Shown here: piece by piece, positions 41-55,438 of the stretch
Position numbering within the stretch: the first letter of the stretch is position 1
Layout: the number at the start of each line of letters is the position of its first letter
Assembly: GCA_944320495.1 (NCBI GenBank)
Contig: CALUHR010000006.1
Location: 31,275 to 95,274, forward strand
Direction of reading: 5' to 3'
DNA length: 64,000 bases
Source of the DNA: Candidatus Methanomethylophilaceae archaeon
GTDB lineage: Archaea > Thermoplasmatota > Thermoplasmata > Methanomassiliicoccales > Methanomethylophilaceae
The notes under the pieces: generated by a model
The model's input: only the letters and a program-made list of their open reading frames with translations
The model's database searches: none
What the model was told of the DNA's origin: nothing
Position numbers and translations under genes: made by a program

Positions 41-487
41 TCGGACCAGGTCGTGCAGGCGTGCGTGGTCCCTTTTCATGGCATCGAACTCAGCATTCGG
101 ACAATTCCTTTCCAGGACCTGCAGGGCTCTCGCAACATCCCTCGGAGAGATGGCGATCATGTCCCCGCGGCCGTGGCCGTACCAGACCTGGACGCATCTC
201 GTATGCGGACTGCTCACTTCAACGACTCTCCGGATGTCGACATAGAGGACGCGACTCCTTCCCTACTGGATCGGATCACGCACAGTGATGCCGGTCCCAT
301 CGAACGCATAGCATGTCAAGGAAGGAATCATGACGAGGTAGAGCTCGATGAAGAACAGGATCCCGATCATCAGCCGACACCTCTCCGGCATTGCCAGTAT
401 CATCAGGAGCACGATGACGAGCGAGAGCACCATGCACAGATGGATTGCGGGACCTGCCCTACCTCTCAATCTGATGATGTCGGACAT
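41..487 (-). CDS. Small membrane protein with possible PH-like C-terminal domain; in-frame TAG at 263-265; ends at CGA 41-43
   Basis: ATG at 487, two hydrophobic segments. After the TAG the frame stays open with plausible sequence (GRSRVLYVDIRRVVEV...ISPRDVARALQVL). Domain call is inference. Confidence 0.5.
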
Positions 488-530
488 GGATAACCCATCT
501 TCTGTATGAGATTCGTCAGAGTCGATGTTC

Positions 531-2822
531 TCGGAAATCGAAGAGGCTGGCCTGTCTCGGGCCCGCCTCGCCCTTGCCTTCTTCCTTCTTCTCTTCGACG
601 ACGGTCTCGGAGGGTGCGTCTGCATCGCCGGGCTCCCCGTATGCGGCGGCCATCTCGTCGATCAGCGCCTCCTCCTCGGATGGGGACGTGTATCCGACCG
701 GCTCCGCCGACTTTCCCGCCTGCCTGAGCATGGCCTCCGCCATCCCTCTGCCGATCCCGGGGACCGTCGACAGCACCGACACGTCGGAGGCGGCGACCTC
801 CGCCTTGGTCCTGATCCCCCTGTCGAAGAGGGCCCTGGCCCTGGCCCTGCCGATGCCACGGAGGGACACGAGGTCCATCAGCTCCTCCTTTACGCCGTAG
901 CGTATCCTGGTGGAGAGCGGTCTGATCCTTCTGATCGCGGGCGGGTTGAAGATGTAGGCGATCTCGCCCATGGCGTAGATCATCCAGTCCATCATGTCGA
1001 TGCGGCTGCGGATGTCGCCGGGTCCGATGCCGAACCCCGAGGTCATGGTGCCCTCCGGCACCTCCGAGATCCAGTCCTCGGTGACCAAGGCGACCTTCAG
1101 GTCGCTGCCGAAGAGCTCGTACATGTAGTCGTCGCGCTCCGCCGGGTCCACCAGCAGATCATCCTCGTGCTCCGCCTCGAACGCGGACACGCGCTCCTCG
1201 TCGCACTTCTTGGGGTACATGCCGAGCACGTCGGGAGTCATGGCGGCCGCCACGAGTATCAGCAGCTCGTCCGTGTCCTCATCCATCTTCATCACGGCGT
1301 CCCTGAGGATGGAGGCGGACTCGGGGTCGATGCACAGGTCGGAGACCCTCCTCCCGAACGGGAGGACCTCAATCGTCCCTCCCTGGCGGCGGACCATCTG
1401 CTCCCTCTCCAGGAAGTCGACGACGCTCTCCACCGCGCTCTCCACTCCGAACATCTGGGACGTGGCCCCGTAGAACGTGCGGCGCAGGAACTCCACGATG
1501 GATTCCTCGGAGTCGGCGTCGCCGGTCGCGAGAACCCCAAGGATGTGCGTCCTGATGACGTTCCCGTTGAACAGCTGGGACTGCACCCTCTCCGTGTCGT
1601 GCTCGATGTAGTCCTCCCTCAGATGGCCGGCGTCGCGGACGTTCTTCGCCATGAGGACGGCCTCGCCGTAGGGGTCGTATCCCGGCCTCCCGGCGCGTCC
1701 GCACATCTGCTTGACCTCCATCACCGGGATGGGCACGCTGCCTCCGTTCTCGAAGCGGGTGGTGTCCCTCACGATGACCCTGCGGGCCGGGAGGTTGATC
1801 CCGGCGGCGAGCGTCGGCGTCGCGACGATGCACTTGATCAGCCCCGACTTGAAACCGTCCTCCACGGTGCGGCGCTGCCTGTAGGTAAGCCCCGCGTTGT
1901 GGAACGCAGCCCCTCCTGCAACGCACTGAGCCAGCTTCCTGCCGACATCGGTGGCCTCCGCATCCCCCTCGAGGGCGGACCTCTCCGCCGCCGACAGGGC
2001 CCTGCCGTGGCCATGTGCCAGCTTCTCGGCGAGACGTGATGCTGCGGCCTCTGTGGACCTGCGGGAGCTGACGAAGACCAGGCACTGCCCGCCCGAGTCC
2101 AGGGTCTGCATGACGAGAGCCTCCAGATCGTCCTTCGGATTGGGGACGTCCAGGGATGACCCGTCGTCGAAAGTGATCCTCCCGTCCAGGTAGACGCCCT
2201 CCCTAAGGGGGACCGGCCTCCATGAGCTCCTGACCAGGTCCGCGTCCAGCCAGTTGGCCAGGTCGATGGCGTTGGAGATGGTCGCCGACAGGGCGATGAT
2301 CTGGAGATCCGGGTTCCTGCCCATCATCTTGGTCAGCGTGACCTCGAGCGTGGGCCCCCTCCCCGGGTCGTGGATCATGTGGACCTCATCCGCGATGACG
2401 AGTCTCACGTCCCTCATCCAGGGGCTCCCGTGCCTGATCATGGAGTCGGCCTTCTCGGAGGTGGCGACCACCACATCGGCATCGGACAGCCCGCGGTCGT
2501 CACTGTCCAGATCCCCGGTGCTCATGTGAATCCTGAATCCCAGCCTCTCGGAGAAGACGTCGAAGTCGTCCCTCTTCTCGGCGGCGAGAGCCTTCAGCGG
2601 AACGATGTAGAGGACCTTCCCGCCGCGCTGTGCCAGCAGCTTGAGGGCGGGGACCATGCCGATGAGCGACTTCCCGCTCGCCGTCGGTATGGCGGCGACT
2701 AGGTTCCTCCCCTCAAGGGCTTTGGGTATAGCCTCGGCCTGCGGGGGATGGAGCTCCCTGAACCCTGCGGACATGAGCGCGTCCGCGACCGAGTCCGGGA
2801 TGTCCAGCTCATCGACCCTCAT
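531..2822 (-). CDS. hel308: Ski2-like SF2 helicase Hel308/Hjm
   Basis: Walker A IPTASGKS, DEVH, TPTLAAGINLPA, QMCGRAGRP, C-terminal HhH. Ends QASLFDF then CGA (531-533); standard-code ORF ends at 516. Confidence 0.95.
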
Positions 2823-2928
2823 ATCGACTGGAACCGTGGGGCATCATTTCTAGCTAACGGGTAGAGTCGGCGTTTCCGGAGCAAACCTACGCGCATCTAT
2901 AAGAAGGGGGGCATTATGGGGTGTCAGA

Positions 2929-25846: not shown

Positions 25847-28609
25847 ATGGAATCCTCTGGAGAACGGGCCTCCAATCTGTCGGTGAGGGCGAGATCCCTT
25901 TGGGCGAAGGTCTCGAATCAGAGAGGTAGCTCCGATTGGCTATCGCTTCCAACCCACATGAGCGACTCATGTATGGTATGCAGGGAGATCTGGAATGATT
26001 GGGTCAGTCCGGCTGTGAAAAGCATCATTGTTCGTGGGATTAGCATGTCCGACGGTTCCGATGCTTCTTTGGAAACGGCAGAGGGATTGGCATTGTTTCT
26101 TGCCGCCGCTCACGATCTTGGCAAAGCGTCCCCCGCGTTCCAATGTAGGATCATACCATCCAATCTTGATATTCAGGAGGAATGTCGTCAGAGGCTGGCA
26201 GGTTCAGGTCTTGAATTGAATCTAAATCTAAGCCAGTCTCATTCCCCGAAGCACGCTATCATCTCGGAGATGATCCTTGAGAGGAATGGAATCGACCGTA
26301 CCATTGGTGTGGTTCTAGGAGGGCATCATGGTAAGCCGCCGGGTTTTGCGGATCTCGAGAATCTCAGCGCTTACAGCGGACACACGGGATCGAAATCGAA
26401 GTCATGGGTAGAGGTGCAGGACGAGCTCCTGGTTTTCGCATGCCAGCTGTCATCATTCGATCTCGGGATGGTGCGCCAAATAAGACTGGATCTCCAATCG
26501 CAGGCTGTACTGACAGGTCTCGTGATAATGTCCGATTGGATGGCCAGCGATGAGACTCTCTTCCCCTATTCGGAGGATGGGATCGGACAGTCGACATCCG
26601 AGCGCATCGGGGAGGCATGGGCCAGCATAGGTATCAGGAGATGGGATGCGGAAGACGAATGGTCGTCATATGACCTCTACGAGGGAAGGTTCGGATTCAC
26701 GGCCAGGCCATTCCAGAGAGCAGTGGCGGATGTCGCAGCCAATGTCTTCGGACCATGTATGATTGTGATCGAGGCACCGATGGGTGAAGGTAAGACAGAA
26801 GCTGCCCTGGTGGCCGCAGAGACGCTGGCGAGCAGATTCGGGGATGGGGGAGTGGTATTTGCGCTGCCTACACAAGCCACCGCTGACGGGATATTCAAGA
26901 GATTCCTGGATTGGGCAGAGAAGGCGTCCCCTGGTTTCGATCGTCATTCGATATTCCTCGCTCATGGGAAATCCAGATTCAACAATCAGTTCAACAGGCT
27001 CAGATCTTCAAATATGAGGGTCGGGGGCGAAGATGGCAACTTGGTGTCAGGCAACATCGTAGCCATGGATTGGTTCAGCGGTCGCAAGAAGGGGCTGTTG
27101 TCCGATTTCGTCGTAGGGACTGTTGATCAGGTTCTAATGGCTGGTCTTAAGCAGAGGCATCTGGCCTTGAGGCATCTGGCCTTGTCAGGCAAGGTCGTGG
27201 TGATTGACGAATGTCATGCTTATGATGCTTACATGGGCAGTTATCTCTCACTCGTGCTGCGTTGGCTGGGGTCTTACAGAGTGCCCGTCATACTGATGTC
27301 TGCCACTCTTCCCTCGGGGACCCGTAGGATGCTCATGGAGTCCTACTCCAACAGTAGCGTCGATCAAACCGAAGAGGATTCCATGGCGTATCCGAGGATT
27401 TCCGTAGTGGATGGAAACGAGACATCCTATGTATTTCCCGGTTCTTCATCAAGAAGGTATGATGTCAGAATCGAGCGCGTCACGGATTCGGAGATGATGG
27501 ACAAGCTGCATGCATTTCTGCAGAACGGGGGATGTGCCGGTGTTATAGTCAATACCGTTGCCCGTGCACAGGGATTCTACGAGAAACTGAAGTCAGAATA
27601 CCCAGATGATCGTGTAATTCTCATCCATTCTGCGTTCACCGGAACCGATCGTTCGGTCATAGAGTCGGATGTCATGGATGCTCTGCATGAGGCCCACAAC
27701 ACTCAGCAGACGAGGACGATCGTTGTCGGGACACAAGTGTTGGAGCAATCCCTGGACATTGACTTCGATTTGCTGGTCAGCGACATTTGTCCCATGGATC
27801 TGCTGATCCAGCGTATCGGACGTCTGCACAGGCATGACAACCCGCGTTCCTCCAAGATGGCCGAAGCGACATGTCTGGTCCTCGACACAGATAGTGAGGA
27901 ATTCGAGAAGGGTTCGGAGGCCGTCTACGGCAGATTCCATCTGATGAATGCCCGTCTGCTCCTTCCGGAATCCCTGAACATACCGGACGATATCCCGAGG
28001 TTGGTCGAATCCGCTTACGATCCATCCGGGATCCCATGGGGGACGGAAGTCTTCGAGGATTATCTCGATGCCAAAAGGGATGATAGTGACCTGATATCAA
28101 TCGAGAGGAGGAAGGCAAGGGCTTTCCAGATCTGTCGTCCGGACAGGTCTCCGGAAGGCGATGGCAGTCTGGTGGGATGGCTAGAGATGGCCCTGTCGGA
28201 CAAAACCGAAAGAATGGCGGAATGCACAGTCAGGGATGCAGATCCGTCGGTGGAGGTCATCCTGGTATGTCGCGATCATGCGGGGAATTTCAGAACTTTG
28301 CCCTGGGTGGGGGAGACCGGAGGTTCGATCATACCTCCGGATTCCTGTCCGGATGTCGGATTGGCATACGAGATGGCAGGGTGCAAGATACGCCTGCCGG
28401 GCAGATTGACCCGCAGGTACAACATAGATGAGACTGTGAATAAACTAGAGTACATTATATAGCAAAACATCATACCTCAGGTGTGGCAGGAGTCCCATTG
28501 GCTCGCAGGGGAACTCTTCCTCCTGTTGGATGAGGACCTGACGGTGACGTTCGAGGGGCTCAGGATGAGGTACGACAGGGAGTATGGAATGAGGGTTTGC
28601 GATGATCGA
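25847..28609 (+). CDS. cas3: Type I-E Cas3 (HD nuclease-helicase); in-frame TAG at 28460-28462; ends at CGA 28607-28609
   Basis: HD motif (AHDLGK), APMGEGKTE, DECH, QRIGRLHRH. A Cas3-like C-terminus (WQESHWLAGELFLLLD...YDREYG) continues in frame past the TAG. Confidence 0.9.
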
Positions 28610-30152
28610 GAAAGAATTCAACCTGATCCGCGAGAAGTGGATACCGGTGATGAAAGAGGATGGGACGATCGAGGAGGTGGGTCTGGAGGATGTGCTGGTC
28701 CATGCCCACGAGTATCTCCGCATATCGAGTGAACTTCCTACCTTGGACTATGCTCTGATGAGGCTTCTGATGGCAACGGCCTATGCCGCCAACCGCGGAT
28801 GGCTGGATGGGATCGATGATGTGGGGTCCGCCACATCATCATGGAAGCAGGTCATGGATGCCGGCAGATTCGACGAGTCCGCCATCAGAGGATATCTGGA
28901 TAGGTACGAGGACAGGTTCTACCTGTTCCATCCGACGCGTCCATTCTACCAGGCCCCGATCGACAAAGGGACGGAGTACTCCGCAGCCAAGCTGATAGGG
29001 ACGCTTTCCGAGAGTTCCAACAAACCGAGGTTCTTCCAGATGGTGAGCGGTGTTGCCAAGGAGAGCATAAGCTATCCGGAGGCGGCCAGATGGCTACTCC
29101 ATGTAATCGCCTATGATGATACCTCGGCCAAGCCGACCGTTCCAAAATCCGGGCTCCCATCGCCAGGTGCGGGATGGGTTGGCAAGATCGGGCCAGTGTA
29201 TTTCGCAGGGGACAACCTCTTCCAGACGCTGCTCCTGAACATGCCGTTCTACAATATGATCCTGAACGAGCCGTTCACTGATGGCGTGGCAACGTGGGAA
29301 CCAGAGGTCGCGAACGTCACAGAACGCAGGGAGATCCCCCTGCCGGGAAGCCCCATCGAACTTCTGACCATCCAGTCCAGAAGGATACTCCTGAAGAGGA
29401 ACGGGGAGAGAGTCACAGGATTCCTTCTGCTCGGCGGGGACTTCTTCCAGAAGGAGAACGCGTTCATCGAACAGATGACGGCTTGGCATCGCACCAAGGA
29501 GGGAGGATGGGTGCCGTCGAGGCACGATCCTGCCCGGTTCATCTGGCGTGATTTCAATCCGCTCCTCTTGGAGCGTGATGAGGACAACAACCCTGGCGTG
29601 GTGAAGTGGGTGTCCCGTCTGGCGAGCCGTGGAATCATAGCGAAGGGCAATGTCAGGCTGACCACCACTGCCGTGACCTATGGCGACAAGGATTTCGTAG
29701 CAACGGGTGTGGTAAACGATGCCCTGTCGCTGAATTCCCAGATTCTCTCCGATCTCGGCAGGAACTGGAGGGTCCGCATCTCGGATTCCCTCGACTCCAC
29801 TGATCAATGTGTCATGGCATTCGGGAGATTCGTACAGAACCTGGCCGTGGCCGAAGGGGAGGATGAGAAGTCATTGGACCTGCCGAAGTTGCGTTCCGTG
29901 GCCATGGAGCAGGCTTACTTCAGACTCGACAAACCGTTCAGGGTCTGGCTCTCAGCCATCGATCCCGATTCGGATTCAGAAGACGACAGGATCGCCGAGT
30001 GGGAGCGTCAGATGCGCTCCCTGCTCTTCTCCATGGCCGATGACATGGTGAACGGATGCAGTATCAAGGCGATCACTGGTCGCGATATGGAGAGGAACGC
30101 ATTCAGCAGACTTCAGTTCTTCAAAAACACGGTCAACAAGATCCTGAGGTGA
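28602..30152 (+). CDS. cse1: Type I-E large subunit Cas8e/Cse1
   Basis: FNLIREKWIPV, RFYLFHPTRPFYQ, position after cas3. Confidence 0.88.
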   Translation: MIEKEFNLIREKWIPVMKEDGTIEEVGLEDVLVHAHEYLRISSELPTLDYALMRLLMATAYAANRGWLDGIDDVGSATSSWKQVMDAGRFDESAIRGYLDRYEDRFYLFHPTRPFYQAPIDKGTEYSAAKLIGTLSESSNKPRFFQMVSGVAKESISYPEAARWLLHVIAYDDTSAKPTVPKSGLPSPGAGWVGKIGPVYFAGDNLFQTLLLNMPFYNMILNEPFTDGVATWEPEVANVTERREIPLPGSPIELLTIQSRRILLKRNGERVTGFLLLGGDFFQKENAFIEQMTAWHRTKEGGWVPSRHDPARFIWRDFNPLLLERDEDNNPGVVKWVSRLASRGIIAKGNVRLTTTAVTYGDKDFVATGVVNDALSLNSQILSDLGRNWRVRISDSLDSTDQCVMAFGRFVQNLAVAEGEDEKSLDLPKLRSVAMEQAYFRLDKPFRVWLSAIDPDSDSEDDRIAEWERQMRSLLFSMADDMVNGCSIKAITGRDMERNAFSRLQFFKNTVNKILR

Positions 30153-34919: not shown

Positions 34920-35025
34920 TATTATTTTGGCATCAGAATGTTGATAGACAACTAAATTTTTATCGTCCTTTTGGTGATAATCCCGTGAGAGGTTCCGCGC
35001 GTCTGGCTCATCCATTTATTTTGGT
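34920..35025 (+). promoter_or_regulatory. CRISPR leader
   Basis: AT-rich stretch between cas2 and the first perfect repeat. Confidence 0.65.
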
Positions 35026-35662
<637 letters not shown>

Positions 35663-40715: not shown

Positions 40716-40770
40716 CTTGTGCTCGAGCACAAGTAGAGCACAAGTAGAGCACAAGTAGAGCACAAGTAGA
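40716..40770. repeat. 18-bp perfect palindrome CTTGTGCTCGAGCACAAG merging into 4 tandem copies of GAGCACAAGTA
   Basis: Read directly: palindrome 40716-40733; 11-mers at 40725, 40736, 40747, 40758. Confidence 0.9.
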
Positions 40771-40876
40771 TTGTAGGAAATTGTTCCTGGAATGCTTCCG
40801 GATTCGTCCGATTGCTGAATCTTCTTTATAAATGGTTTATAAATGCGGCTGATTCTGTCCTATAATTCCGGGGTCG

Positions 40877-40948
40877 GCACAAGCACAAGCACAAGCACAA
40901 GCACAAGCACAAGCACAAGCACAAGCACAAGCACAAGCACAAGCACAA
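40877..40948. repeat. Simple sequence repeat (GCACAA)x12
   Basis: 12 perfect hexamers ending 24 nt before the ATG at 40973. Confidence 0.95.
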
Positions 40949-40972
40949 GTACTTCTGAACATATGACGAGTC

Positions 40973-42508
40973 ATGGAGCTCGGGATACTCCCAATAAACA
41001 TCGGCAAGATACTGGACGGAAGGACTGTAGAGAATAGCCGTCTTGAATACAAGGAGGGTTGGAATCCTGAACGTATCCTCCACACGATATGTGCGTTTGC
41101 CAACGATTATGACAACATGGGAGGTGGATACATAATCATAGGGATAAGGGAGGATGGCGGTCTCCCTGCCGAGTTTCCAGGCGTGACCCCCGAGGAGATT
41201 TCCAAGATAGACAGAGAGTTGACGAGATTATGCAATCTTCTTGAGCCGAGGTATATGCCAAGGATGTCCCAGGAAACCTATAGGGGTACCACCCTCTGTG
41301 TGATATGGGCACCTCCGGGCGAAAGCCGTCCGTACACCTGTCCAGTATCGGTAGGAGATGGAAAATCCAAGGAAAGGGCGTACTACATCAGAAGGCTGTC
41401 CAACACGGTCCGTGCGGATCACGATGAGGAGGTCGCGCTGATCAGGGGGTCATCGAGCAAAACCACCTTCGATAACAGTGTGAATGGCACGGCTACGATA
41501 ACCGATATCTCGTGGCCGTATGTGAGTGAGTATCTGACGTCTGTGGGAAGCAACATCGACGTTGAGACGGCATCCGCCATCTCCGTGTACAGGGCCATGG
41601 GGATAGTCCGTGGTCCCAGCGACCTCCCGCGTCCGGTGAACGTCGGTCTGATGATGTTCTCGATGCATCCTGAGGAGTTCTTTCCGAAGACATATGCCGA
41701 GGTGTCCGTGATTGATCAGGCTTCAGGCGAGGTGATGCGTGATGTGAGGTTCACGGGGCCGGTCGCCTACCAGATCCAGCAGATGATGATGTTCCTCAAT
41801 AACGGCATCATAGGTACGATCACGAGGAAGAGATTCGACAGAATCGAGGCCGAGACCGTGGTCAACTATCCGGTGGCGGCATTGAGGGAGGTCGTGGTGA
41901 ATGCCTACTTCCACAGGGACTACGAGATCCAGGAGCCGGTGAAGGTGAGGATCTACAGCGACATGATCGCCGTGATAAACTATCCCGGTCTTGACAGGAG
42001 CATCACCCGGGAGAACATGGACCGTGGTGATTTCCGTTGTGACTATTGTCGTAACAGCCGTCTCGGGGACTATCTGAAGGAAATGGATCTTGCGGAGATG
42101 CGCAACAGCGGGATACCGATGATATTCAAAGCGATGAGGGATAACGGATCCCCTCCGCCGAGATTCATAACGGATGATGACCGTAGATCGATACGTGTGG
42201 AGCTTCCCATACATCCGTATTTCTTGGAAGAGGAGTCGCCCTCGGACGATTCAATAACGACCGTCGATGGGGCTGCCGGTAGAACCCGGACACCCGATGA
42301 GATAAAGGACGGCATCCTGGAGGTTCTGAGGGAGAGGGGGTGCACGTCGTCATCGGAGATCTCGAAGGCACTCGGCTATTCCAGAATCACAGGGGCCTTC
42401 CGTCGTTGTCTGAATGAGTTGATGGATCAGGGATTGGTAGAGTACAAGTATCCGGATAAGCCGAACGACAAGAGACAGAAGATCTGTCTCGTCAGCAGAC
42501 ATTCATGA
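40973..42508 (+). CDS. Schlafen/AlbA_2 domain + RecG-C-like (HATPase_c_4) + winged-helix protein
   Basis: ENSRLEYKEGW...ICAFAND...GGYIIIG; NYPVAALREVVVNAYFHRDY; RNSRLGDYL; C-terminal HTH. Confidence 0.85.
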   Translation: MELGILPINIGKILDGRTVENSRLEYKEGWNPERILHTICAFANDYDNMGGGYIIIGIREDGGLPAEFPGVTPEEISKIDRELTRLCNLLEPRYMPRMSQETYRGTTLCVIWAPPGESRPYTCPVSVGDGKSKERAYYIRRLSNTVRADHDEEVALIRGSSSKTTFDNSVNGTATITDISWPYVSEYLTSVGSNIDVETASAISVYRAMGIVRGPSDLPRPVNVGLMMFSMHPEEFFPKTYAEVSVIDQASGEVMRDVRFTGPVAYQIQQMMMFLNNGIIGTITRKRFDRIEAETVVNYPVAALREVVVNAYFHRDYEIQEPVKVRIYSDMIAVINYPGLDRSITRENMDRGDFRCDYCRNSRLGDYLKEMDLAEMRNSGIPMIFKAMRDNGSPPPRFITDDDRRSIRVELPIHPYFLEEESPSDDSITTVDGAAGRTRTPDEIKDGILEVLRERGCTSSSEISKALGYSRITGAFRRCLNELMDQGLVEYKYPDKPNDKRQKICLVSRHS

Positions 42509-43465: not shown

Positions 43466-44083
43466 GGGTCGGGCGAGATGCATGGATGATAATAGAATTA
43501 ACGACGGAGTTGCGGTCAGCTCCATCCGTCTGACGAGGGGCGCGATCCGATTTTGTTCCTGTTATCAATGTATCGGACCGTCCTCCGATCGGTTTTCTGG
43601 ATGGATTAGATTCATGGGAGCAGATGTTGGGTCAACCAATCAGATATCTCCAGACTATCAAACACGACACGACTGGTCTTCGAAATCCAACGATGGTCTG
43701 TAACATTCAAGCACAGGATCAGATACATTCACATCGGTATGGTTATACATTCGAATGAGAACCTGATATTGAGCTACATCTGTACTGTAATCCGTATGTA
43801 TCGATTTGAATCATTCCGGGAATGGTAGCCGTGAAGATCCTATTCCAACTCACAGAAATCGACTATATCAACATGAATGGGTATGTCTGTAACCATGGGA
43901 AGAAGGATCGACTTATAATCATGATAATATCATATTATATTATTGAGATACTTTAGTTAATATTTAACTATTATCTTAATCAAATAAATTAAATAATTGA
44001 TATTATTATTTTAATATACTGCCGAATGGCAGGAATTCGAGATAGGGAATGGTGATTCGAAAATCGGATCTTAGGAGGTAGGT

Positions 44084-44620
44084 ATGGAGAAGAAGGAAGT
44101 GGCGATAATTCTCGGAGTTCTCGCCATCGTGATCGTTGCGATCGTGTTGCTTTCGACATCGAGCGATAACAACAGGATCCTATACATAAACGATGGCTTG
44201 ATTGAGACCGATCACTTCGATCTCACGACGGAGGAGGGTTCCATCGCGAATGGAACCATATTCTACATCGATGAAGGCGAGGATCTGCGGGCCTTGATTG
44301 TTGCAGATTTGCATATCGTTCCAGATACATACTACATGGGCCTATACATGTATCTGGAAGGGGGCATAATCCCCGAGACATTCTACAGCGAGTACAATCT
44401 GGGAACTCCTGGGGTTTCACATGTATATAGAGCCTCGGAAAAGGATGAAGATGGATATCCAGTAAGCTATACTCTGTGGGTCGATCGTCATGCTATTGGC
44501 GGATCTGGTGCGATAGTCATTGATTGTGCTATCAAACCTACATTCGAAAGAGGCGTAGACACGATAAAGATTGTCATTCAACTTGGTAGTGTCAGTGAAC
44601 ATTTTACACAAACACTGTGA
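44084..44620 (+). CDS. Membrane-anchored hypothetical protein (low-GC island)
   Basis: RBS AGGAGG, N-terminal TM helix. Confidence 0.7.
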   Translation: MEKKEVAIILGVLAIVIVAIVLLSTSSDNNRILYINDGLIETDHFDLTTEEGSIANGTIFYIDEGEDLRALIVADLHIVPDTYYMGLYMYLEGGIIPETFYSEYNLGTPGVSHVYRASEKDEDGYPVSYTLWVDRHAIGGSGAIVIDCAIKPTFERGVDTIKIVIQLGSVSEHFTQTL

Positions 44621-44634
44621 AAGGAGAATTTCAA

Positions 44635-46641
44635 ATGTCAACGAATGCTATCACCAGATTTGGTTGCATTATTGTTGCCATTCTACTTCTGGCTACAGTT
44701 GCAACCGGTGTGGCTGAATCCGCACCATCTGACAACTCATCATCGAACAGTGATGAGGTAAAGCCCAATCCACTAAATTTGCCTGCTATGTGCTATTCCA
44801 ATGAAGCTCATGCACAGACAAAGTTTGGCTATGCATATGCAACAACGGCTATTGGCACATGGAGAGGAACATGGACCGATAGCGGACATTGGATGTATGA
44901 ATACGGATTGACTGGAATTGGTTCGTATGATGCAAGCCGTATTTTTGGAGCCAAGTTTGAAGTCAAGGAGATTGAAAATCCTTCTGCAATGACACTGTAT
45001 CTGGGTGTCGATGAGGGGGGTGTCTGGAGCACTAATGGTTCAGATGGCTCACAAATGGCTATCAGTAATGCAGCTGAGGCGATAATTGGTGTGGCTATTT
45101 CAGCAATAGGTGGGCATATCGATTCTGCTTGGACTGCTGTAACGACAATAATTGATCTAATGAAGTCAGGGGCTTCTCATACTGAAGCCCAATATTCAGA
45201 TTTGTTGAGTTGGAATTGGTTGGTAGGGGTTGAAGAGACTGGTCAGTATTCCTCTTTCGTTGTCCAAGTGGATGCCGATAATACAGCCTCAATATCGACA
45301 GAGTACTCCATCTACTATGGAAGCACAGAAGCCGATATAAAGTGGCTGTCAACAGGAGTGTTCGAATTCCAAATGCCTGCCACTGGCAATCCCAACACCA
45401 TGACCGAAGAGGAAAGGATCGAGAACAATATCATAACCGTACCAAGAGACCAGATTGCGTATAAGGCGGCCGAACTGGACATATCCCCGTCTCAGGTGAA
45501 GTCTCTCATAGAGTCTGACCAGGATGAGTTCTACTTCATAGGAACGTCTCCGATCTGTCTTTCACATGATGTACAGGAGATGCAGTCAGTTCCGGTTTCT
45601 AACGAATCATATATGACATCTCAGGTTCCGGAAACCACCGAACTCGTCGTTCTTTCCGACTCGGATGCAACCATCTCATCTATAGAGATGCCATGCAACG
45701 TATCCATCCAAACGACATTCGATTCGATCGGCAGGGACGACATCGTTCTCATCGACGGAGATTGGGCAACCACGGTGGAGCGTCATCAGTTGAACTCCAA
45801 GGTTCGTGATCTCGTAGACAGTGGTAATGCCGTTCTGTTGATGTCCGAGTCTTCGGAACTCATCTCTTCAGAGAACACAGGGTATTCGACGGCTTTTGCT
45901 ACCGATGCAGATGTGTATGGGATACGTCACGATCCTCTATCAGGTGCCACGTACTGCTATAGCTATGTTGGAATGGATGCAGAAGACTCCATGCTGACCG
46001 CATACGAGTGGGCCGAATCATACAAGACGGCCAATATCACGAGAAATGCTACCACTGACCCTCCGATTCTATACGCCTTCACCAAGGTCAATCAAGGAGG
46101 GCTCGGAGAGATGGTCATCGAGACCAAGTACACCAAGAGTAGCACCGACGACTGGGAAGTGAATCTGATATTGACCGAGTACAGTCTCACCGGAACCCCA
46201 TATCCGGATTCCTCCCTCTTCGAGAACAATAAGGCCATTGCCGACATGACGATATCATGCGAACATGTGAACTCGGAGCTTCTGGACTATGGTCCTTCAT
46301 TCTCATCCAGTACACTTGAAAACCACACTGTCGATTTGGAAGCGTTACAGTCCACTGTGCACGTCGAAAAGAACTGGGACTATACGATTCTGGAATGCGA
46401 GACCACCGTCAACGTACAGGGTGATTCCTTCGAGATACACTACGACACTGACGAATATGGTAGCCACAAGACAGAATCAAAGACTGCGAGACCAGGAACT
46501 ATATGTTTGGCAACGAATGAAGGACCATACTGCTATCAGGAAACTGAGTACTACTCGGTGAACTATCTGTTGGACAAGGCATGGTCATTGGAGGACACAT
46601 ACACACTCGATGAATGCTCGATGGTCGTGTCCATATTCCGA
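44635..46641 (+). CDS. Large secreted Ser/Thr/acidic-rich protein (low-GC island); first CGA 46639-46641
   Basis: RBS AAGGAG, signal peptide; ...VVSIF-CGA-TGG-TGA. Confidence 0.7.
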
Positions 46642-46939
46642 TGGTGACAGAAGGATCGATGAAAGCAATCCAGTCAATCCGTCGACATGATCGGGGAAAC
46701 TTCCTCGCGAGACGGGTGTGAAACAAAGCCCTGTGAACAAACAGCCCCTTCCAGACAATGGAAGGGGCACATCCTCATCAGTATGTTGGGATCTTAGAAA
46801 CAATCTTCATTCGAGTTGGTAGGGTCCCCACCCCACAAAACTATCACGATTGGGCTGAATCTTACATCCAACCATCCATCTCGAACGCATCCTTGAATGG
46901 GCCGACAGAGAACTTCCTGTCAGTCGAACCATGCCTCGC

Positions 46940-48490
46940 TCGATGCCTCAGGGTCATCATCGGCGATTTCGGCAGCTGCGCATCCAATGCGGAGAGGATC
47001 CTGCGCGTCCTGGGCGTGGCGCCCACGGTCTGCCAGACTATGCCGTCCCCGCGGGCCAGTATGGTGTCCAGCCACCGTATAACATCGACCAGGGGATCCG
47101 AGTAACCGGCATCGGAGAGACGGTTCGACATCTCGCACCATAGGATCAGTGCGATGAAGCGGATCATGGACATCCCGTGCTCCTTCTCCTCCAGCAGGTT
47201 GATCCTGTCGATCATCAGGTCCTCCCTGAGCATCGATATCGCCTCATCGAACGCACGTCCGTTCTCGAGGCAGTCCATGACATCCTCCCATGTCTCGAAC
47301 CCGCGGGTGTAGAGGACCTTCACACCGTTGAGGGCCACATCCAGCTCGTCCTGTTTCACCGAGATCCGAAGGCGCCCGTCCCTGATGCCGATGTCGAAGA
47401 ACCGTGCGTAGCGTCCTGCGACGTCCCTGAACTGCTTGATGGCCTCCGCCGGATCGAGCTTCCTGAGATGTCTCTCGATGACGGTTATGCGGGCCATCAG
47501 GCGTTCGGGTTCCTCGACGTCGTCGTCCTCGCGTCTGAATGCCCAGACGGTTATGCGGTCCTGTGGGCGGGAGGTGTGGATCTTCGGATCCCCCTCGGAG
47601 ACGATCTCCATGGTTTCCGTGTCATCGGTCCTCTCGGGTGCCTCACGGAGTCCGCGGATGTGTTTCGATACGATGCCCGCCTCGACCGAGCATACTCTGT
47701 ACCTCTTGCCGTGACGCTCGTGCAGCTCGCCATCGTCGACCATCCCCGCGACCTTCACGGCACACGGCGTGTCCGGCAGCGCGGTGGTGATGAACTCCGC
47801 CCCGCGCTCCACCATCCTCTCGATCCATGCGGCGCTTCCGGGGTAGGTGCGTTCGTAGATGTAGGTGCATCTGTCGGCTCCGAGCTCACGCATGATCTTC
47901 ATGTAGTTGATCATCTCCATCTCCCTCAGGGACTTGTAGATGTCAATGGTGAAATGGACGGGGATGCCATTCCTGTCGTTCTCGAACATTATCACAAGGT
48001 CCGCATCGCCGAACACGGTGCTGCCGTCCTCGCCCACGATGCTGCTGTCATACGAGTATACCTGGGGGGCCCTCGCGACGCGGAGGCAGAAAAGCTCCCC
48101 GCGCCCATCGGCATCCGATCCCAGGTGCTCCAGCAGCTCGTCTATCATCGACGGATGGAAGACGTCCTCGATCCCGAGGAGCTCCCGGGACATGTTGCCC
48201 TCCATCTCCTCCTTGAATGATGTGGGATACGCACAGGATTGGAGCAGCGATACGGCACTGGCCAGTGCCCAGTCGCCGTATTGGCCGTAGGCCTTGCGCA
48301 GATCCTCCCTGAGGCCGCAAGATTCCGATATGCGGATCAGGGCGTGGCAGGAACCGAACTTCTTCGCCGTGAGTATGCCGGCGCCAACCGTGTACGGTCT
48401 CATCCTGAGCCTGGTCTCCTCGAGGGACCTGTCGATGTCCCTCGTCATCCTGTTGATGCGGTCGTAATCGTCGATCGGTCCTTCGCTCAT
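46940..48490 (-). mobile_element. IS1634-like transposase-derived gene, probably inactive; ends at CGA 46940-46942
   Basis: FGSCHALIRISESCGLREDL, RELLG, GIPVHF, WCEM...LSDAG; paralogous to the neighbour; standard-code ORF ends at 46862. Confidence 0.6.
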
Positions 48491-48491
48491 C

Positions 48492-50225
48492 TCACATCCT
48501 CCACTTATCCGGGTCCTGCGATCCGGTCTGTCTGGTCATCATGTCGGTGGTGCGCATCCCGGGGGCGTACTCATACGGGGCTGACGGGATGCTCGGTCCG
48601 GGCAATGGCACATGGAGGGCCTCGTAGATCCTACGATGTGCAGGGGATATGTCGCTGATCCTCCAGGTCGATTCGTCTCCGATCGCCATCACCGTGTCCA
48701 GTATCTGCATGGCTGTGGATACGGGCATCTCTATGCCAGATTCGGAGAGGCGCTTCGTGCACAGGCTCCACAGCGTCAGTGCGCAGAATTTCACCGCCAT
48801 GCTCTCCATTATGGAGGGCGTCCTCCCGTTGACCGTCCCGGTGGTCAGGTTGGTCTGCATGACGTTCAGCTCCTTCTGGAAGATGCCGCGGCATCTCGCG
48901 CATCTCATCATGTCGCTCCAGCTCCTCACGCCGTGGGACATGACCACGAATATGCCTTCGCGGTTGAGTGCGGCGGACACGCCCTTCTGTCTAACCTTGA
49001 TCTCGAGCTCCCCTTCGACGACCCTCATATCCAGATATCTGCTGAACTCCCCTGCGATGTCCCTGACCCTGTCGACCGCGTCGTACGGGTCCATGGATCT
49101 GAGCTGATCCTCTATGTCGGCGAGCCGGCGGGACATCCTCTCGCGCCCATCGTCTGAGCCCGAACCGTATTCCAGGCAAGCCCATGCCGATATGCGCAGA
49201 TCCAGGGGGACCGAGAAGAAGCGCTGGTCGGTCGGGAGTATGATCTCGAACTCCGGAGTCTCGTTGTCCTCCTCACGACAATCGATCCTGCGTTGGATCT
49301 TGCGGGGTACGATGGCAACCTCCGAATCGTAGCCCACGTACGTCTTCCCGTCGAAGTGCCTGATCGAGCTCTGGTCGGTCCTGTTCTTGACCACCTGGCT
49401 CATCATGTTCTTGACGAAGGGGGTCCTCCTCAGGGCAGGGATGGCGTAGTCCATATCGACGCATCTGGACAGGTTGTCCGCATGTCCGGAGTCGGATTCC
49501 AGGATGACTACGCATCTGGGGCACCCGTTGTCGATCATCCACCTGTGGATCTCCATCATCCTGGATCTCGGAAGGCGGATGTCGTACGTGGGTTCCATGA
49601 ACAGGGGCGCACCATCCCCGTCGGTCACGATGCAGAAGCGATGCTCCGGGGATGTGCCAGATCCCTGATTTATCCAGTCGTTGGATATGTCCGGGTCCGG
49701 GTCGTAGGTCTTTTCGAAAACATATGCCTCGGATGTGCGGGCGATGCGGTTCCTGTAGAGCGCCTGTATTGAGTCGGCATCCTCGCAGGCCCTTTCGGTG
49801 GTGTTCAGGACGTCATCGGTCGTCTATGTGCCGCCCATGCCGAGAAGCTCCCTGACCATGTTGGTGTCTATCTCCGGTTCGAGGAAGTACATGGGTCCGC
49901 CTGTCAGTATGACCGATATGGCGGTCGCGAGTATGCAGTCCCCGTCGCGGCCGAATGCCGAATGGAGGTCCTCGCGCAGCCTGCAGGATTCGGACAGGGA
50001 GACCAGCGCATGGCTGGCACCGTAGCTTCTGACGACTCCGTTGTTGGGGATGATCTGGACGGGCTTGGCCCTGGACTTCTTCTTTATGATGTCCCCTGTG
50101 TCCGGGTCTATCTTGCCGATGTATTCCGTGACGGTGCGCTTACGGTGGGTCTTGGCGTCGTAGACGGAGGTGCTCCTGTACACATACTGCCTCCCGTCCT
50201 TCTCGACTATGAAATTCTCCGCCAA
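48492..50225 (-). mobile_element. IS1634-like transposase-derived gene with in-frame TAG at 49824-49826
   Basis: N-terminus YVYRSTSVYD...EYIGKID typical of IS1634 transposases. ORF pieces 49824-50225 and 48492-49628 are in one frame, separated only by the TAG. Confidence 0.7.
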
Positions 50226-50379: not shown

Positions 50380-51783
50380 ATGGCAGAGGAGTACTTCACA
50401 AGGATGGGCGACGGTCGCCGCATATTCATGACACGCCAGTGCATCATGGACGACATCCACGATGGCGTATACGATGCAGTGGACGCCGCGGGCGTCCCGG
50501 CCCTCTCCGAGGACGACATGGAGTACATCTGCGACGTCATCTGCATGAAGAGCAGGATCGTCGGCGTGGAGCCCGGCGATGAGGCCGTCCTCTCGAACGA
50601 CGGAGGGCAGCTCAAGATAACCCAGGACAGCGGCGGATCGGGCGTCGGGATCGACATGAGCCGTCTCGAGGCCATCCTCATGCACGAGCGCGGTTTCGCC
50701 CATGACTCATTCGAACTTGGATGGACCGACTACTCGATCAAGGCGATCAAACCGATCATCGCCAACGAGATGCAGGCCATAGAGCAGTTCAACCTGACGA
50801 CGACAATCCCGCTCCTCTATGGTGCGATGCCCAACATGGGTGCATATTACGCTCCGGACGGTCCATACGGGAACCCCACGGACCTGATGAGGAACTTCAA
50901 GATAGAGGAGGCGAAGGAGCAGGCTGAGAGGGCGACCGAACATGTCGCTCGCGACATAACCTACGTGACGACCCTCCTGGATTCCGCTGGATGCGAGGGG
51001 TTCAACCTCGATACGGTGGGATCCGCCGGGGACGGGGACTTCGTCGCGGCCCTCCGCGGATGCGAGGCGTACCGCAAGGCCTGCCCCAACGCCTACATCA
51101 ACATCGGGATGTCGTCAGAGACGGTCCTCGGGATCCACGGATCCCTGGAGTACGACGGGAAGGTTGTCGCAGGGATGTATCCCCACGACCAGGTGAAGAT
51201 GGCCGCCAAGGCCGGAGCGAACGTCTTCGGGGTGTCGGTTAACACCAACACCTCCATGAGCTACGCATGGAACGTCGCCCGCGCCGCATGCATGATCAAG
51301 GAGTGCGTCAGGCAGTCCCCGATACCGGTGCATGCCGATCTGGGTATGGGCGTCGGCGGGGTTCCGATGCACGAGACCCCTCCTGTGGACGCGACATCCC
51401 GCAGCACCAAGATAATGTCGGAGCTGGCGCACGTCGACGGCATATAGGTCGGGGTCGGGGACCCCATCGGCATGGCCGCCACCCACTCCCTCGCTGGAGG
51501 GATGGGCGGGATGAGGGCCGCCGGGGACCTCGTCGCCAGGATGATGTTCGGCAGGAGCATGAAGCTGAGGGATGCCAAGGAGTACGTGGCGAAGAAGCTG
51601 GGCGTGACCACTCTGGACCTCGTGGATGTGAATGTCATGAGGGAGCTCCGCGAGGAGCTGGGCCTCGGGACCATAACCGCCCTGCCCGGCACCCCCAAGG
51701 GGATGCCGGCCAAGCTCAACATCGAGAAGCTCCTGGATGTGACCATCAACAGCTGCGAGCACTACAGGTCTCTCCTGAACTGA
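50380..51783 (+). CDS. mtbB: Dimethylamine:corrinoid methyltransferase, Pyl at codon 356 (TAG 51445-51447)
   Basis: YFTRMGDG start; VDGI-TAG-VGVGDP; the frame continues to a MtbB-like end ([15 protein letters not shown]). Confidence 0.95.
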
Positions 51784-51795
51784 GGATGTGCCAGC

Positions 51796-52296
51796 ATGGA
51801 TGACCGCCGCAACATGAGGCTCGAACTGCTGGTCGGGATCTATTCGAAGATCGGCACCGCCGAGCGCATCGATGACGGCGAGCTGATCGCCCGTGCGGAG
51901 TACCATCACGAGGACGAGAAGCAGTACGGGATCCAGAGCATGAACCTCTGGGGTCTGCAGGACCATGAGATAACGTTCATCTACTCCGGTGGAAGGCTGG
52001 ACCTCGAGACCTACGGGTCCAACATGAGGCGTTCGGTCGAGGAGGCCGGGGATTCCGTCAAACCCGGCAGGAAGCTGAGGAGCGCCACCGTGACCTCGAT
52101 CATGGTCTACGACTCCGCCGATGACGATGTTGTCGCCGCGGTCGAGGTGCACAATGACAAGACGGTCCATAAGATGTCCCTGAACGGTTGGACGATCAAC
52201 CGCGTGGCCCTCGTCCTCACGGATGATCGCAGGGTGGTCGTCGACAGGAGGGGATCATCCCTCTCGCGCAGACTCACCCGCATCGCGGAGATCTGA
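51796..52296 (+). CDS. Hypothetical protein
   Basis: 12 nt after mtbB, coding-like codon use. Confidence 0.6.
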   Translation: MDDRRNMRLELLVGIYSKIGTAERIDDGELIARAEYHHEDEKQYGIQSMNLWGLQDHEITFIYSGGRLDLETYGSNMRRSVEEAGDSVKPGRKLRSATVTSIMVYDSADDDVVAAVEVHNDKTVHKMSLNGWTINRVALVLTDDRRVVVDRRGSSLSRRLTRIAEI

Positions 52297-52310
52297 GACG
52301 GACTCAGATC

Positions 52311-52808
52311 TCAATCCCGGCTGGATCCCAGGTTCCGGATGAAGTCTTCCATCCCCTCGGGGCATTCGTCCTTCGGTATCAGGGCGACGGTGTTCTTGTC
52401 GATCATTATGTAGAACGCCGTCTCGACCTCGTAGACGTTGTAGAGGTCGGCGTACCTCACCGAGTAGCGGGTGCCTGTCGGGGTGTCCACATCGAAGCGG
52501 TCGGCATAGAAGCGGTAGGTGACGGGCATGGACCTCGTCTCCTGCCTGTAGACCCTGTCGTCGATGCGCTTCTGGGACCAGAGCATGTATGCATCCATCA
52601 GGACGCCGAGGAGTGCGAATGGGGCCACATAGATCCAGTCGTCCAGGACGTATGAGATCGATGCGCCGATTATCAGCGATATGACGATGTAGAAGACGAG
52701 CTTCGCGGGTGTCTTCTTCAGGGCGATCTTGTAGAAGTCGAAGAACTTCTGATACTCGTCCCTGGTGTATGTCAGTTCCAGTCTGTACAGGGGTTGTTCC
52801 GGAGACAT
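52311..52808 (-). CDS. YcxB-like membrane protein
   Basis: Two TMs, then VTYRFYADRF...RYADLYNVYEVETAFYI...LIPK. Confidence 0.75.
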   Translation of the reverse strand: MSPEQPLYRLELTYTRDEYQKFFDFYKIALKKTPAKLVFYIVISLIIGASISYVLDDWIYVAPFALLGVLMDAYMLWSQKRIDDRVYRQETRSMPVTYRFYADRFDVDTPTGTRYSVRYADLYNVYEVETAFYIMIDKNTVALIPKDECPEGMEDFIRNLGSSRD

Positions 52809-52925
52809 GGTATCACTATTGGCCGCTCGGACCGGACGCTCCGGGGAGCGCCGTGCGGTCCCGAGGAGATGTGGGTCAGCCCCCATTCCGATAGGAGGAG
52901 AGATGCCGAGTTGCGGGGGCTGATC

Positions 52926-52947
52926 CCCTGCGGCCTTGGCCGCAGGG
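52926..52947 (-). terminator. Hairpin after the mtbC-mtbB-TSUP operon
   Basis: CCCTGCGGCC-tt-GGCCGCAGGG 10-bp stem. Confidence 0.55.
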
Positions 52948-52962
52948 TGGGGTTTGTGAGGA

Positions 52963-53967
52963 TCAGGATGCAGCCTTCTCCTCGGGGTGGGCGGCGAGAT
53001 ACTCGGCCTTGAGCCTGTCGAACTCAGCGTCCTCCTCGTCAGCCAGGGAGTCCTGCTTCTTCTTGATGCCCTGGTAGAGCATCTGGATGGCGATGATGAC
53101 GATCACCGCGGAGACGAGCCACTTGATGTAGTCCATGGGGAAGTTGTCGGTGACGTACAGGATGACGAAGCATCCGAGGGCTCCACCGATGGTTCCGGCG
53201 AAGGTCGAGATGACTGCGGTCTTCCTGTCGTACTGGGGCTTCTCCGCGTGGACGGACTGCCTGATGAACGAGATGGCTGCGGTCGGGATGAGGAAGGCGC
53301 AGCTTCCCATCATGATGGGGTATGCGACGTCGATGTTCATTCCCATGATGGCGACGGTGGCCATCAGCGGCGCGTAGATTCCGATTCCGATGGTCATCAG
53401 GGCTCCGAAGATGAAGCTGATCAGGGTGATCACGATGAGCTTCCATCCGCTGAGTCCTGTGGCGTTGCCGACCTGGTTTCCGATGACCCCGGTCAGCTGC
53501 AGGATCATGACGGCCGCGACGACGATGAGCGCGGCACCGACGACGATACGGGTCATGTTCAGGTTGAGCCTGGAGACGAGACCTCCGCCGATGTACGCTC
53601 CGATGGTCGATGCCACGATGCAGCACACGAGGGTGAGGGTGTCCACCTCGACGTTCGTGATGAAGATGATCGACGCGACCATCTGGTAGGCGACGGTGCA
53701 GACCTGGAGGGTTCCGGGGATGTACTTGTCGCGGAGGATCTTGAACGTCTTGAATCCGGCGGTCAGGGGGCCGTAGGATCCGATTCCGATACCATCCCAG
53801 AACAGGCAGAACGCGGTCCATGCCGCGGCCTTGATCGTCTTCGCGTTGCCTCCGACCTTCATCTGGACCTTGAAATCCACCCTGTTCTGGCGGATGTCGT
53901 AGACCATGTATCCGAGGGCGGCGACGCTGATGACGACGACCAGGATGTCGATGATCAGCACTTCCAT
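52963..53967 (-). CDS. TauE/SafE (TSUP) family transporter
   Basis: Multiple TMs, GIGSYGP, IPGTL, MTIGIGIYAP. Confidence 0.8.
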   Translation of the reverse strand: MEVLIIDILVVVISVAALGYMVYDIRQNRVDFKVQMKVGGNAKTIKAAAWTAFCLFWDGIGIGSYGPLTAGFKTFKILRDKYIPGTLQVCTVAYQMVASIIFITNVEVDTLTLVCCIVASTIGAYIGGGLVSRLNLNMTRIVVGAALIVVAAVMILQLTGVIGNQVGNATGLSGWKLIVITLISFIFGALMTIGIGIYAPLMATVAIMGMNIDVAYPIMMGSCAFLIPTAAISFIRQSVHAEKPQYDRKTAVISTFAGTIGGALGCFVILYVTDNFPMDYIKWLVSAVIVIIAIQMLYQGIKKKQDSLADEEDAEFDRLKAEYLAAHPEEKAAS

Positions 53968-54031
53968 AGATACCATATTTTCACCTTATTCCTTCTACAG
54001 AGGAAAGGTGGGGGCGTGCCCCCGTTTTCAA

Positions 54032-55438
54032 TCACTTCTTGAGCTGGTTCCTGTAGTGCTCGCAGTTGCTGATCGTGATTCCGAGGACCTTCTCGATGTT
54101 CATCTTGGCGGGGAGTCCCTTGGGGCTGTTGGGCTGGCCGGTGACGACTCCGAGGCCCTCCTTGTCCCTGATGTCCCTGATGAAGTTCTCCTCGGTGAGC
54201 TGGAACGGGTCGATCTCGAGCTTGTCGGCGACGTACTTCTTGGCGGCGTCGATCTTCATGTTCTTGGCGAACTGCATCCTGCAGACCAGATCGCCGGTGG
54301 TCCTCATTCCGCCCATTCCGGAGCAGAGGCCGTGGGCAACCGCCATGGAGGCGATGTCCCCGGATCCGACCTATATTCCGTCGATGTTGGCGATCTCGAT
54401 GAGGATCTTCGCGGCCCTCCCGGTGATGTCGGTGGGAGGAAGCTCGCACATCGGGATTCCGCCGACACCCATTCCCATGTTGGCGTGGACGGGGATGTTG
54501 GCGACCTTGACGCATTCCTTGGTGATGACGGCGGAGCGGGCGGCGTTCCAGGCGAAGCTCTTGGAGGTGTTGGTGTTGACGACGGATCCGAAGATGTTGA
54601 CTCCGGCCTTCTCGCACAGCTTGACCTGCTCGTGGGGGTACATTCCGGCGACGACCTTGCCGTCGTACTCCATCCCGCCGTGGATTCCCAGGACGGTCTC
54701 CGCGGACATTCCGCACTCGATGTAGGCGTTGGGGTTGGACTTCCTGTAGTTCTCCATTCCCTTCAGGGTGGCGACGAACTCGGCGTCTCCGGCGGAGGCG
54801 ACGGTGTCGAAGTTGAATCCCTCGCAGCCGACCTTGTCGATCTCCTGGCAGACGTATCCGATGTCCCTGGTGAGGTGCTCGGCGGCAGCCTCGGAGGCGG
54901 CCATGGACTCCTCGATCTTGAACTCCCTCATGAGGTCGGTGGGGTTCGCGTAGGGTCCGTCGGGGGCGTAGTAGAGACCCATGTTGGGCATGGCTCCCAT
55001 GACGAGAGGCAGGGTGGTCAGCATGGCCATCTGCTCGTAGTTGGAGGTCTCGCAGTTGATGACGGCCTTCACGGGCTTGATGGAGTAGTCCATCCAGGCG
55101 AGCTCCATGGAGTCGAAGGTGAGGGACCTCTCGTAGACGAGGAGACCCTCGAGCCTGCCCATGCAGGGGATGGCGTTCCCGCTTCCGCCGTTGTCCTGGT
55201 TGAATTTGATGGCACCGGCGTCCTTGGAGAGGCAGACCTCCCTTCCGGGCTCGATGCTGGTGATCTTGCTCTTGTCGCAGACGATCTCGTAGATGCGCTC
55301 CATCTCGTCCTGGGAGAGCTCAGGGACCTGGGCGGCGTCGGCACCGTCAGCCATACCAGCGACGATGTCGGACATGATCTGCTCCTTGGTCATCCTGACC
55401 CTTCTGCCGTCTCCCATCCTCGTTATGTAGTCTTCCAT
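54032..55438 (-). CDS. mtbB: Second dimethylamine methyltransferase, Pyl at codon 356 (TAG 54371-54373)
   Basis: MEDYITRMGDG; IDGI-TAG-VGSGD; in frame with 54032-54346. Confidence 0.95.

Follow-up and report, generated by a model that had tools for sequence, protein, structure and literature searches.

The stretch of DNA analyzed in this study, hereafter the window, is 64,000 nucleotides long and corresponds to C6:31275-95274 (contig 6) of G000, the draft genome of a Candidatus Methanomethylophilaceae archaeon from the gut (1.77 Mb, 14 contigs, ~61% G+C and 90.6% complete). The two mtbB genes, the pyl genes and the relatives recovered in this analysis likewise assign it to the Methanomethylophilaceae. 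Five of its genes carry an in-frame TAG, the amber codon (UAG in mRNA) read as pyrrolysine (Pyl) in methylamine methyltransferases: two copies of mtbB, a cas3 gene, an IS1634-like gene and a gene for a small membrane protein (Table 1). An earlier interpretation based on the letters alone, here called the sequence-only reading, had reported these five codons, and we found every one of them in place, with the frame going on in each case into family-consistent sequence. Its statement that no gene ends in TAG is likewise true for the window, where gene calls stop at TGA (32), at CGA (10) or at TAG (3), all three of these TAGs being internal. CGA also stands at the ends of cas3 (28607-28609) and of the membrane gene (44-46).

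Interrupted genes of the window

With the TAG read as a residue, the minus-strand mtbB matches the Pfam family Dimeth_Pyl over residues 3-465 (profile positions 2-463 of 463), and the plus-strand copy matches it at full length (residues 4-464; profile positions 2-462 of 463). The orthologue of the plus-strand copy in G008, a complete genome of the same genus (1,664,211 bp) that was used for orthologue comparison, has TAG at the identical column.

In cas3, the Pfam domain Cas3_C (residues 796-915; profile positions 1-107 of 107) crosses the TAG. The homologues in the relatives G038 and G002 (46-48% identity) align up to residues 916-921 and are stop-free, while a block downstream of the TAG, read by eye as W.ES.WL..EL, is conserved in all three aligned homologues, which display K, Q and N at the TAG column itself. 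The frame closes at its CGA exactly where a homologue ends, and the ATG of the intact partner gene cse1 begins five bases before that CGA. An HD nuclease, a DEAD/DEAH helicase and a Cas3 C-terminal domain, the parts of a type I-E Cas3, are thus predicted in one frame beside cse1, and on the sequence this one-frame architecture requires read-through of the TAG at codon 872. The codon-model score of cas3 is poor against the genome's own model.

Residues 48-542 of the interrupted IS1634-like gene align in one piece with the adjoining paralogue, which has no TAG, straight across the TAG (E = 3e-58), and the coding scores are 70 upstream and 146 downstream of this codon. The gene has no Pfam match, and it reaches 27.7 bits against a cut-off of 100 with the NCBIfam model NF033559, over the C-terminal part only; by this score the label 'IS1634-like' denotes a resemblance and not a family membership. 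The membrane protein has two uninterrupted homologues, P0005 (95% identity) and P0006 (74%), with Leu at the TAG column and a similarity that reaches the CGA. The only window open reading frame (ORF) that seemed to end in TAG (34952-35638, minus strand, 228 amino acids) was rejected as a false ORF, a translated CRISPR array, whose product is a repeated peptide with a period of ~60 codons (ITPAFAGST / DHPRIRGEH / GSPPHSRGA).

In-frame TAG codons across the genome

Genes were called over the whole of G000 with a purpose-built, simple codon-score finder. The 453,801 codons of the confident genes include 28 in-frame TAGs, as compared with 2,442 and 345 occurrences in frames 2 and 3. If CGA is admitted to the stop set, 18 of 1,656 genes meet a TAG before any other stop; 14 of these TAGs are internal and 4 terminal, and the coding sequence runs on for 55 to 1,635 codons beyond the internal ones. 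Approximately 15 well-supported genes are interrupted in this way, namely four methylamine methyltransferases and 11 others. The methyltransferases comprise the two mtbB genes and two mtmB genes, which are full-length matches with TAG at codons 203 and 206; all four have the codon at the canonical position, and the same columns are TAG in G008. The remaining genes are listed in Table 1. As the sequence-only reading had anticipated, standard gene callers cut such genes, including cas3, TatD, the helicase, the two giant surface proteins and the methyltransferases.

Downstream of the TAG, none of these interrupted genes displays a frameshift or a second stop. For the TatD gene, a comparison was possible with G018, the sister species of G000 (95.7% identity across 7.3 kb); 16 differences lie beyond its TAG, every one of them synonymous. 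Neither the two giant TAG genes nor the mtbB/IS region gave anything usable in DNA searches of G018, leaving TatD as the only comparable gene. Where the codon of relatives could be read at a TAG site, a single base separates it from TAG (GAG, TGG), and a change of one base could also account for the other residues seen in relatives (Leu, Trp, Lys, Gln). In the non-methyltransferase genes, the TAGs stand mostly at variable positions.

We then counted stops that homology to G008 passes, requiring at least 25 aligned columns at 32% identity or more on each side and no nearby G008 stop codon. Homology passes 6 of the 14 testable TAGs (two by read-through homology, and four, the methyltransferases, with TAG also in G008), as against none of 351 TGA, 74 CGA and 16 TAA codons (0 of 441 in total). 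On this sequence comparison, in-frame interruption is specific to TAG, which speaks against ordinary pseudogenes as well as assembly error.

Several other candidates were discarded. An initial tblastn version of the stop-spanning test gave 200 TGA cases that were syntenic neighbour genes in the same frame, and it was redone with the subject codons checked. A local coding-score scan around every TAG gave 436 hits, mostly antisense shadow frames, and was dropped in favour of gene calls. The ORFs at C8:22226, C2:91628, C3:138907, C13:432037 and C13:109660, with several TAGs close to the 5' end, are start-codon over-extensions whose Pfam domains begin after the TAGs. Five small multi-TAG ORFs, which have no Pfam match, were neither discarded nor accepted.

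Table 1. Features of the window (window positions) and genes elsewhere in G000 with an internal or terminal TAG (contig:position where given)
Feature	Location	Strand	TAG codon	Remarks
Small two-helix membrane protein gene, 147 codons	44-487	-	263-265, codon 75	CGA end 44-46
cas3, type I-E-like, HD + helicase + Cas3_C	25847-28609	+	28460-28462, codon 872	
cse1 (cas8e), intact CRISPR partner gene	28602-30152	+		Pfam CRISPR_Cse1, 1.4e-95
CRISPR array	34950-35640	.		downstream of type I-E cas genes
IS1634-like paralogue	46940-48490	-	none	adjoins the interrupted gene; CGA end
IS1634-like gene, 577 codons	48492-50225	-	49824-49826, codon 134	
mtbB (dimethylamine methyltransferase)	50380-51783	+	51445-51447, codon 356	
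mtbB (dimethylamine methyltransferase), second copy	54032-55438	-	54371-54373, codon 356	
Corrinoid (B12-binding) protein gene	55474-56118	-		adjoins mtbB
MttB-superfamily methyltransferase (non-Pyl type)	61237-62700	+	none in frame	Pfam MTTB, 3e-86
TatD hydrolase			codon 148	domain 9-276 crosses TAG; GAG there in G018 and G008
SF1 helicase			codon 334	AAA_11 domain crosses TAG
Aldo-keto reductase with C-terminal 4Fe-4S domain			internal	TAG between the two domains
2,301-aa surface protein, Listeria-Bacteroides repeats			codon 666	DUF7846 crosses TAG; weaker support
3,475-aa surface protein			internal	basis: coding score only
465-aa conserved protein			internal	Trp at TAG column in relatives of 96-97% identity
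Small gene	C13:187296		internal	weaker candidate; TGG in G008; TAG spanned in tblastn against G008
Candidate gene	C2:57320		internal	weaker candidate
DUF6506 protein			terminal	Pfam complete, 1-95 of 96; next codon CGA
Metallo-beta-lactamase-fold protein			terminal	TAG-GCG-TGA
AAA_18 kinase-like gene	C13:221853-222401 (G008:572423-572971)		codon 178	four codons, then CGA
148-aa protein			terminal	20 codons, then CGA

Gene ends and the stop set

Under the standard code, 65-97 genes (4-6%) seem to end at TAG. This count was rejected, as many of these genes carry an in-frame CGA at the end of the orthologue, upstream of the TAG. With CGA as a stop, genes end at TGA in 1,177-1,197 cases (71%), at CGA in 408-425 (25%) and at TAA in 53-55 (3%), and TAG stands at the natural end in 4 of the 1,656 gene calls (~0.2%), with another stop following within 0, 1, 4 and 20 codons, respectively. 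At ~440 positions where a G008 orthologue stops, the codon of G000 is TGA in 373 cases, CGA in 47, TAA in 11 and TAG in 7; the seven TAGs comprise four internal methyltransferase Pyl codons, two that lie past the gene's own TGA and one that is terminal. The sequence-only reading had staked its claim on there not being many conserved genes with a TAG where their homologues end, and a terminal TAG was found at one of these ~440 positions.

The AAA_18 kinase-like gene keeps the same arrangement of TAG, four further codons and CGA in G000 and in G008, despite a protein identity of ~63%; either an old TAG stop has been retained, or a Pyl-containing tail of five residues is conserved. Selection for back-up stops was considered and set aside: a second stop follows within four codons at three of the four terminal TAGs, against a background of 28% (P ~0.07), which is too weak.

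CGA, by these measures, behaves as a terminator. Besides its occurrence at the orthologue ends given above, it is found only 11 and 9 times in 206,384 conserved aligned columns of the two genomes, and the coding score collapses downstream of CGA as it does downstream of TGA. CGA ends ~25% of the gene calls in G000, but only ~3% in G008, and a tRNA-Arg(UCG) gene is still present in G000 despite the CGA stops. The stop set put forward by the sequence-only reading, UGA and CGA with UAA as a possible third member, holds, and UAA can be stated more firmly as a definite stop accounting for 3% of the ends.

The single archaeal release factor, aRF1, of G000 (C2:85942-87135) has the stretch GRSTEL, as does that of G018, in contrast to GRGTEL in the remaining 29 relatives of the alignment; this stretch corresponds to the GTS loop of eRF1, which takes part in stop-codon reading. 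Beside the NIKS motif, the whole genus reads QASNIKSKTTM, and other families have SSNIKSKSTR-like sequences. Any link between these differences and the reading of UAG or CGA would be a candidate one.

The pyl cluster and its missing pylB

On contig 9, pylS, pylC and pylD lie together, followed by ramA, and all three score above the NCBIfam cut-offs (pylS, TIGR02367, 260 bits against 178; pylC, TIGR03909, 302 against 248; pylD, TIGR03911, 182 against 150). PylS, at 276 amino acids, consists of the C-terminal catalytic domain only and has no N-terminal domain, as in Methanomassiliicoccales. Just upstream of pylS, a 72-nucleotide cloverleaf with the anticodon CUA was found by eye and folded; this pylT resembles the tRNA-Pyl called by aragorn in G008, with a compensatory change in the D stem, and its sequence is the same in G018 (100% identity). 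In G000 it was missed both by aragorn and by an Rfam scan of the pyl locus.

In the G000 assembly, the best match to the pylB profile reaches 66 bits against a cut-off of 348, and a tblastn search of G000 with the PylB of G008 hit nothing but a different gene, with weak similarity (26% identity). The gene order is pylT-S-B-C-D in G008, whereas in G000 pylC directly follows pylS (junction C9:67834-67852), and G018 has the same pylB-less junction. A pylB copy elsewhere is unlikely, though possible because the assembly is 90.6% complete. Of the other genomes in the genus, 58 of 61 carry pylB and 57 carry pylD. Compared with the definition of a Pyl+ archaeon (pylTS plus pylBCD), G000 therefore has pylT, pylS, pylC and pylD but lacks pylB. 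The sequence-only reading had named the pylTSBCD genes as the place to look, and four of the five are found intact and under purifying selection, while the fifth is deleted.

The shared junction indicates that pylB was lost before G000 and G018 separated. Between the two genomes, synonymous and non-synonymous codon differences number 17:4 in pylS, 48:18 in pylC and 21:1 in pylD (86:23 in total), and this purifying pattern since the split, and thus after the loss of pylB, shows that what remains of the pyl system is still under selection. One internal TAG can also be dated: that of TatD is younger than the loss of pylB, because G018, which is also pylB-less, has GAG there, so that a UAG was tolerated afterwards in this one case.

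Elsewhere in the genus, G076 (98% complete) is without pylB and without pylD, and it seems that the genus contains a Pyl-minus member. G075 and G077 each have one in-frame TAG inside pylB itself, as also reported for PylB of M. acetivorans (PMC12626013). No Pyl-type mttB was found in the G000 assembly, and the use of trimethylamine may for this reason be missing, or the gene unassembled; the MttB-superfamily protein of the window is stop-free and shares 36% identity with the MttB of Pyl type in G008.

Further features of the window

In the region of the two IS1634-like paralogues and adjacent ORFs (44000-48000), G+C falls to ~50%, as against ~61% for the genome, a drop that suggests acquired DNA. 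Two perfect short tandem repeats, an 11-nucleotide unit (4.2 copies) and GCACAA (12.2 copies), occupy 40725-40949, just upstream of a Schlafen/AlbA_2 gene (40973-42508).

Discussion

We consider it likely that UAG in G000 is read mainly as a sense codon by means of tRNA(Pyl) and a PylRS without N-terminal domain, that it has almost been lost as a terminator, and that UGA, CGA and UAA terminate translation while TAGs drift into genes. An amber-suppressor tRNA(Pyl), charged by this shortened PylRS, would decode UAG mainly as an amino acid, and termination would fall to UGA (~71%), CGA (~25%) and UAA (~3%). Under such permanent suppression of UAG, a point mutation to TAG (from GAG, TTG or TGG) would act as a missense and not as a nonsense mutation, and new TAGs could enter ordinary genes (cas3, TatD, the helicase, the transposase-like gene and surface proteins) at variable positions, those of mtbB and mtmB being the old, functionally required ones. 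Without PylB, 3-methyl-D-ornithine would not be made from lysine, and the cell would need to import 3-methyl-D-ornithine or pyrrolysine, possibly by uptake from other gut methanogens; alternatively, PylC and PylD may form desmethylpyrrolysine from D-ornithine. The proposal of the sequence-only reading that amber means Pyl across the proteome is accordingly upheld in its first half, the general sense reading of UAG. Its second half, the identity of the residue, is left weaker: because pylB is deleted, we can only infer genuine pyrrolysine, and the inserted residue may not be genuine pyrrolysine.

A number of observations weigh against this interpretation. The gene for PylB is gone from the assembly, cleanly deleted between pylS and pylC, and in M. 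acetivorans a pylBCD deletion abolishes read-through (PMC12626013). In the same species, UAG is experimentally ambiguous, giving truncated as well as extended products (Shalvarjian et al. 2025, PNAS, PMC12626013), whereas we infer efficient ribosomal read-through in G000 from DNA only. In addition, three to four conserved genes have TAG at their natural C-terminus, one of them in common with G008 at the same codon, and UAG may for this reason keep some terminator function. The non-methyltransferase TAGs are private to G000 and therefore recent, and some of them may have arisen very recently as inactivating mutations, or may be variants of the sampled population. Finally, the codon-score gene finder overlooks atypical genes, such as cas3.

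These points lend themselves to a different account, in which UAG is ambiguous as in Methanosarcina, the release factor often terminates there, and the non-methyltransferase TAG genes yield mostly truncated products, inactive in part or in full, and are on their way to becoming pseudogenes. The dual reading demonstrated in M. acetivorans, the three to four natural TAG ends and the recent origin of the private TAGs all agree with it. However, such ambiguity predicts TAG nonsense to be as rare as that of TGA, TAA or CGA, and the ratio observed is 6 of 14 against 0 of 441. The purging of TAG terminators to ~0.2% of genes points to strong and constant suppression, and downstream of every such TAG the frame is free of frameshifts and second stops. 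On balance, we judge an ambiguous UAG to be unlikely. That the Pyl system died with the loss of pylB, so that UAG is now an ordinary stop and the TAG genes, mtbB and mtmB included, are relics, appears very improbable; the deletion is clean and common to G018, and no Pyl-type mttB turned up in the assembly, but pylS, pylC and pylD have remained under purifying selection since pylB was lost (86 synonymous and 23 non-synonymous differences), G000 and G018 have the same pylT sequence, and none of the four methyltransferase genes is shortened on either side of its TAG. A plain stop would moreover be expected to reappear at gene ends, where TAG accounts for ~0.2% of genes against 3% for TAA. Assembly or consensus errors would be conceivable in a metagenome-assembled draft of 14 contigs and 90.6% completeness, yet errors would not prefer TAG over TGA, TAA or CGA, nor place it at canonical Pyl codons of methyltransferases that are common to G008, and the terminal TAG of the AAA_18 gene is in G008 as well; we give this explanation hardly any credence.

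The general sense reading of UAG in this family is not new and has been known since 2014 (PMC4153887). In 'Ca. Methanomethylophilus alvus', TAG accounts for 1.6% of stops and 16 non-methyltransferase Pyl proteins were listed, including Cas1, and a new amber codon under constant suppression was viewed as a stable, near-neutral mutation (Borrel 2014, BMC Genomics 15:679, PMC4153887). G000 resembles this organism in belonging to the same family, in having a PylRS without N-terminal domain, in the great rarity of TAG as a stop and in the presence of an affected CRISPR protein. It differs from it in that pylB is deleted and that other genes are hit (cas3, TatD, the SF1 helicase, the transposase-like gene and surface proteins), as well as in its TAG stops, which are 4-6% under the standard code and drop to ~0.2% with CGA as a stop.

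With M. acetivorans, G000 shares pylTS and pylCD, Pyl in methylamine methyltransferases and a few drift-acquired proteins, and a reduced share of TAG stops; in contrast to Methanosarcina, in which ~5% of genes end in TAG (PMC12626013), TAG termination in G000 is close to nil. The standard-code value of 4-6% for G000 agrees with the published median of 4.1% for Pyl+ Methanomethylophilaceae (PMC12626013), and it arises mostly from reading through CGA. Acetohalobium arabaticum, which also decodes UAG with a Pyl cassette, is described as having kept 20-30% TAG stops and as switching the cassette on only with trimethylamine (Prat et al. 2012, as summarized in PMC4153887), unlike G000, which has purged TAG from its gene ends. 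As for the residue, PylC and PylD turn D-ornithine into desmethylpyrrolysine, which PylRS accepts (PMC11467909), and in E. coli given pylTSCD and D-ornithine, UAG is described as being translated into desmethylpyrrolysine or pyrroline-carboxy-lysine (Cellitti 2011 and Gaston 2011, as summarized in PMC11467909). G000 naturally has this same gene set, pylT, S, C and D without B, although the E. coli strain is a laboratory construct supplied with a D-ornithine-type precursor.

Two additions made here are of some interest: TAG termination falls almost to zero when CGA counts as a stop, and a pyl cluster without pylB is kept under selection. Standard annotation of G000 is wrong twice over: genes with TAG are split or truncated, and genes that end at CGA are extended to whichever of TGA, TAA and TAG comes next, and most of the apparent TAG stops arise in this way. 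The fall in TAG termination from 4-6% to ~0.2% bears on whether Pyl-decoding archaea keep UAG ambiguous or abandon its use as a stop, and the loss of pylB with pylT, pylS, pylC and pylD retained raises the question of whether pyrrolysine is acquired or an analogue is inserted in its place. In a more far-reaching version, to which we assign a small though appreciable chance, UAG would be no stop at all but a dedicated 21st sense codon, CGA would have taken over a quarter of the terminations, and the residue would be desmethylpyrrolysine or be derived from a scavenged precursor. If this were true, the published percentages of TAG stops for the genus would be artefacts of unrecognised CGA stops, and G000 would be a natural organism that is auxotrophic for a genetically encoded amino acid, or that uses an analogue of it.

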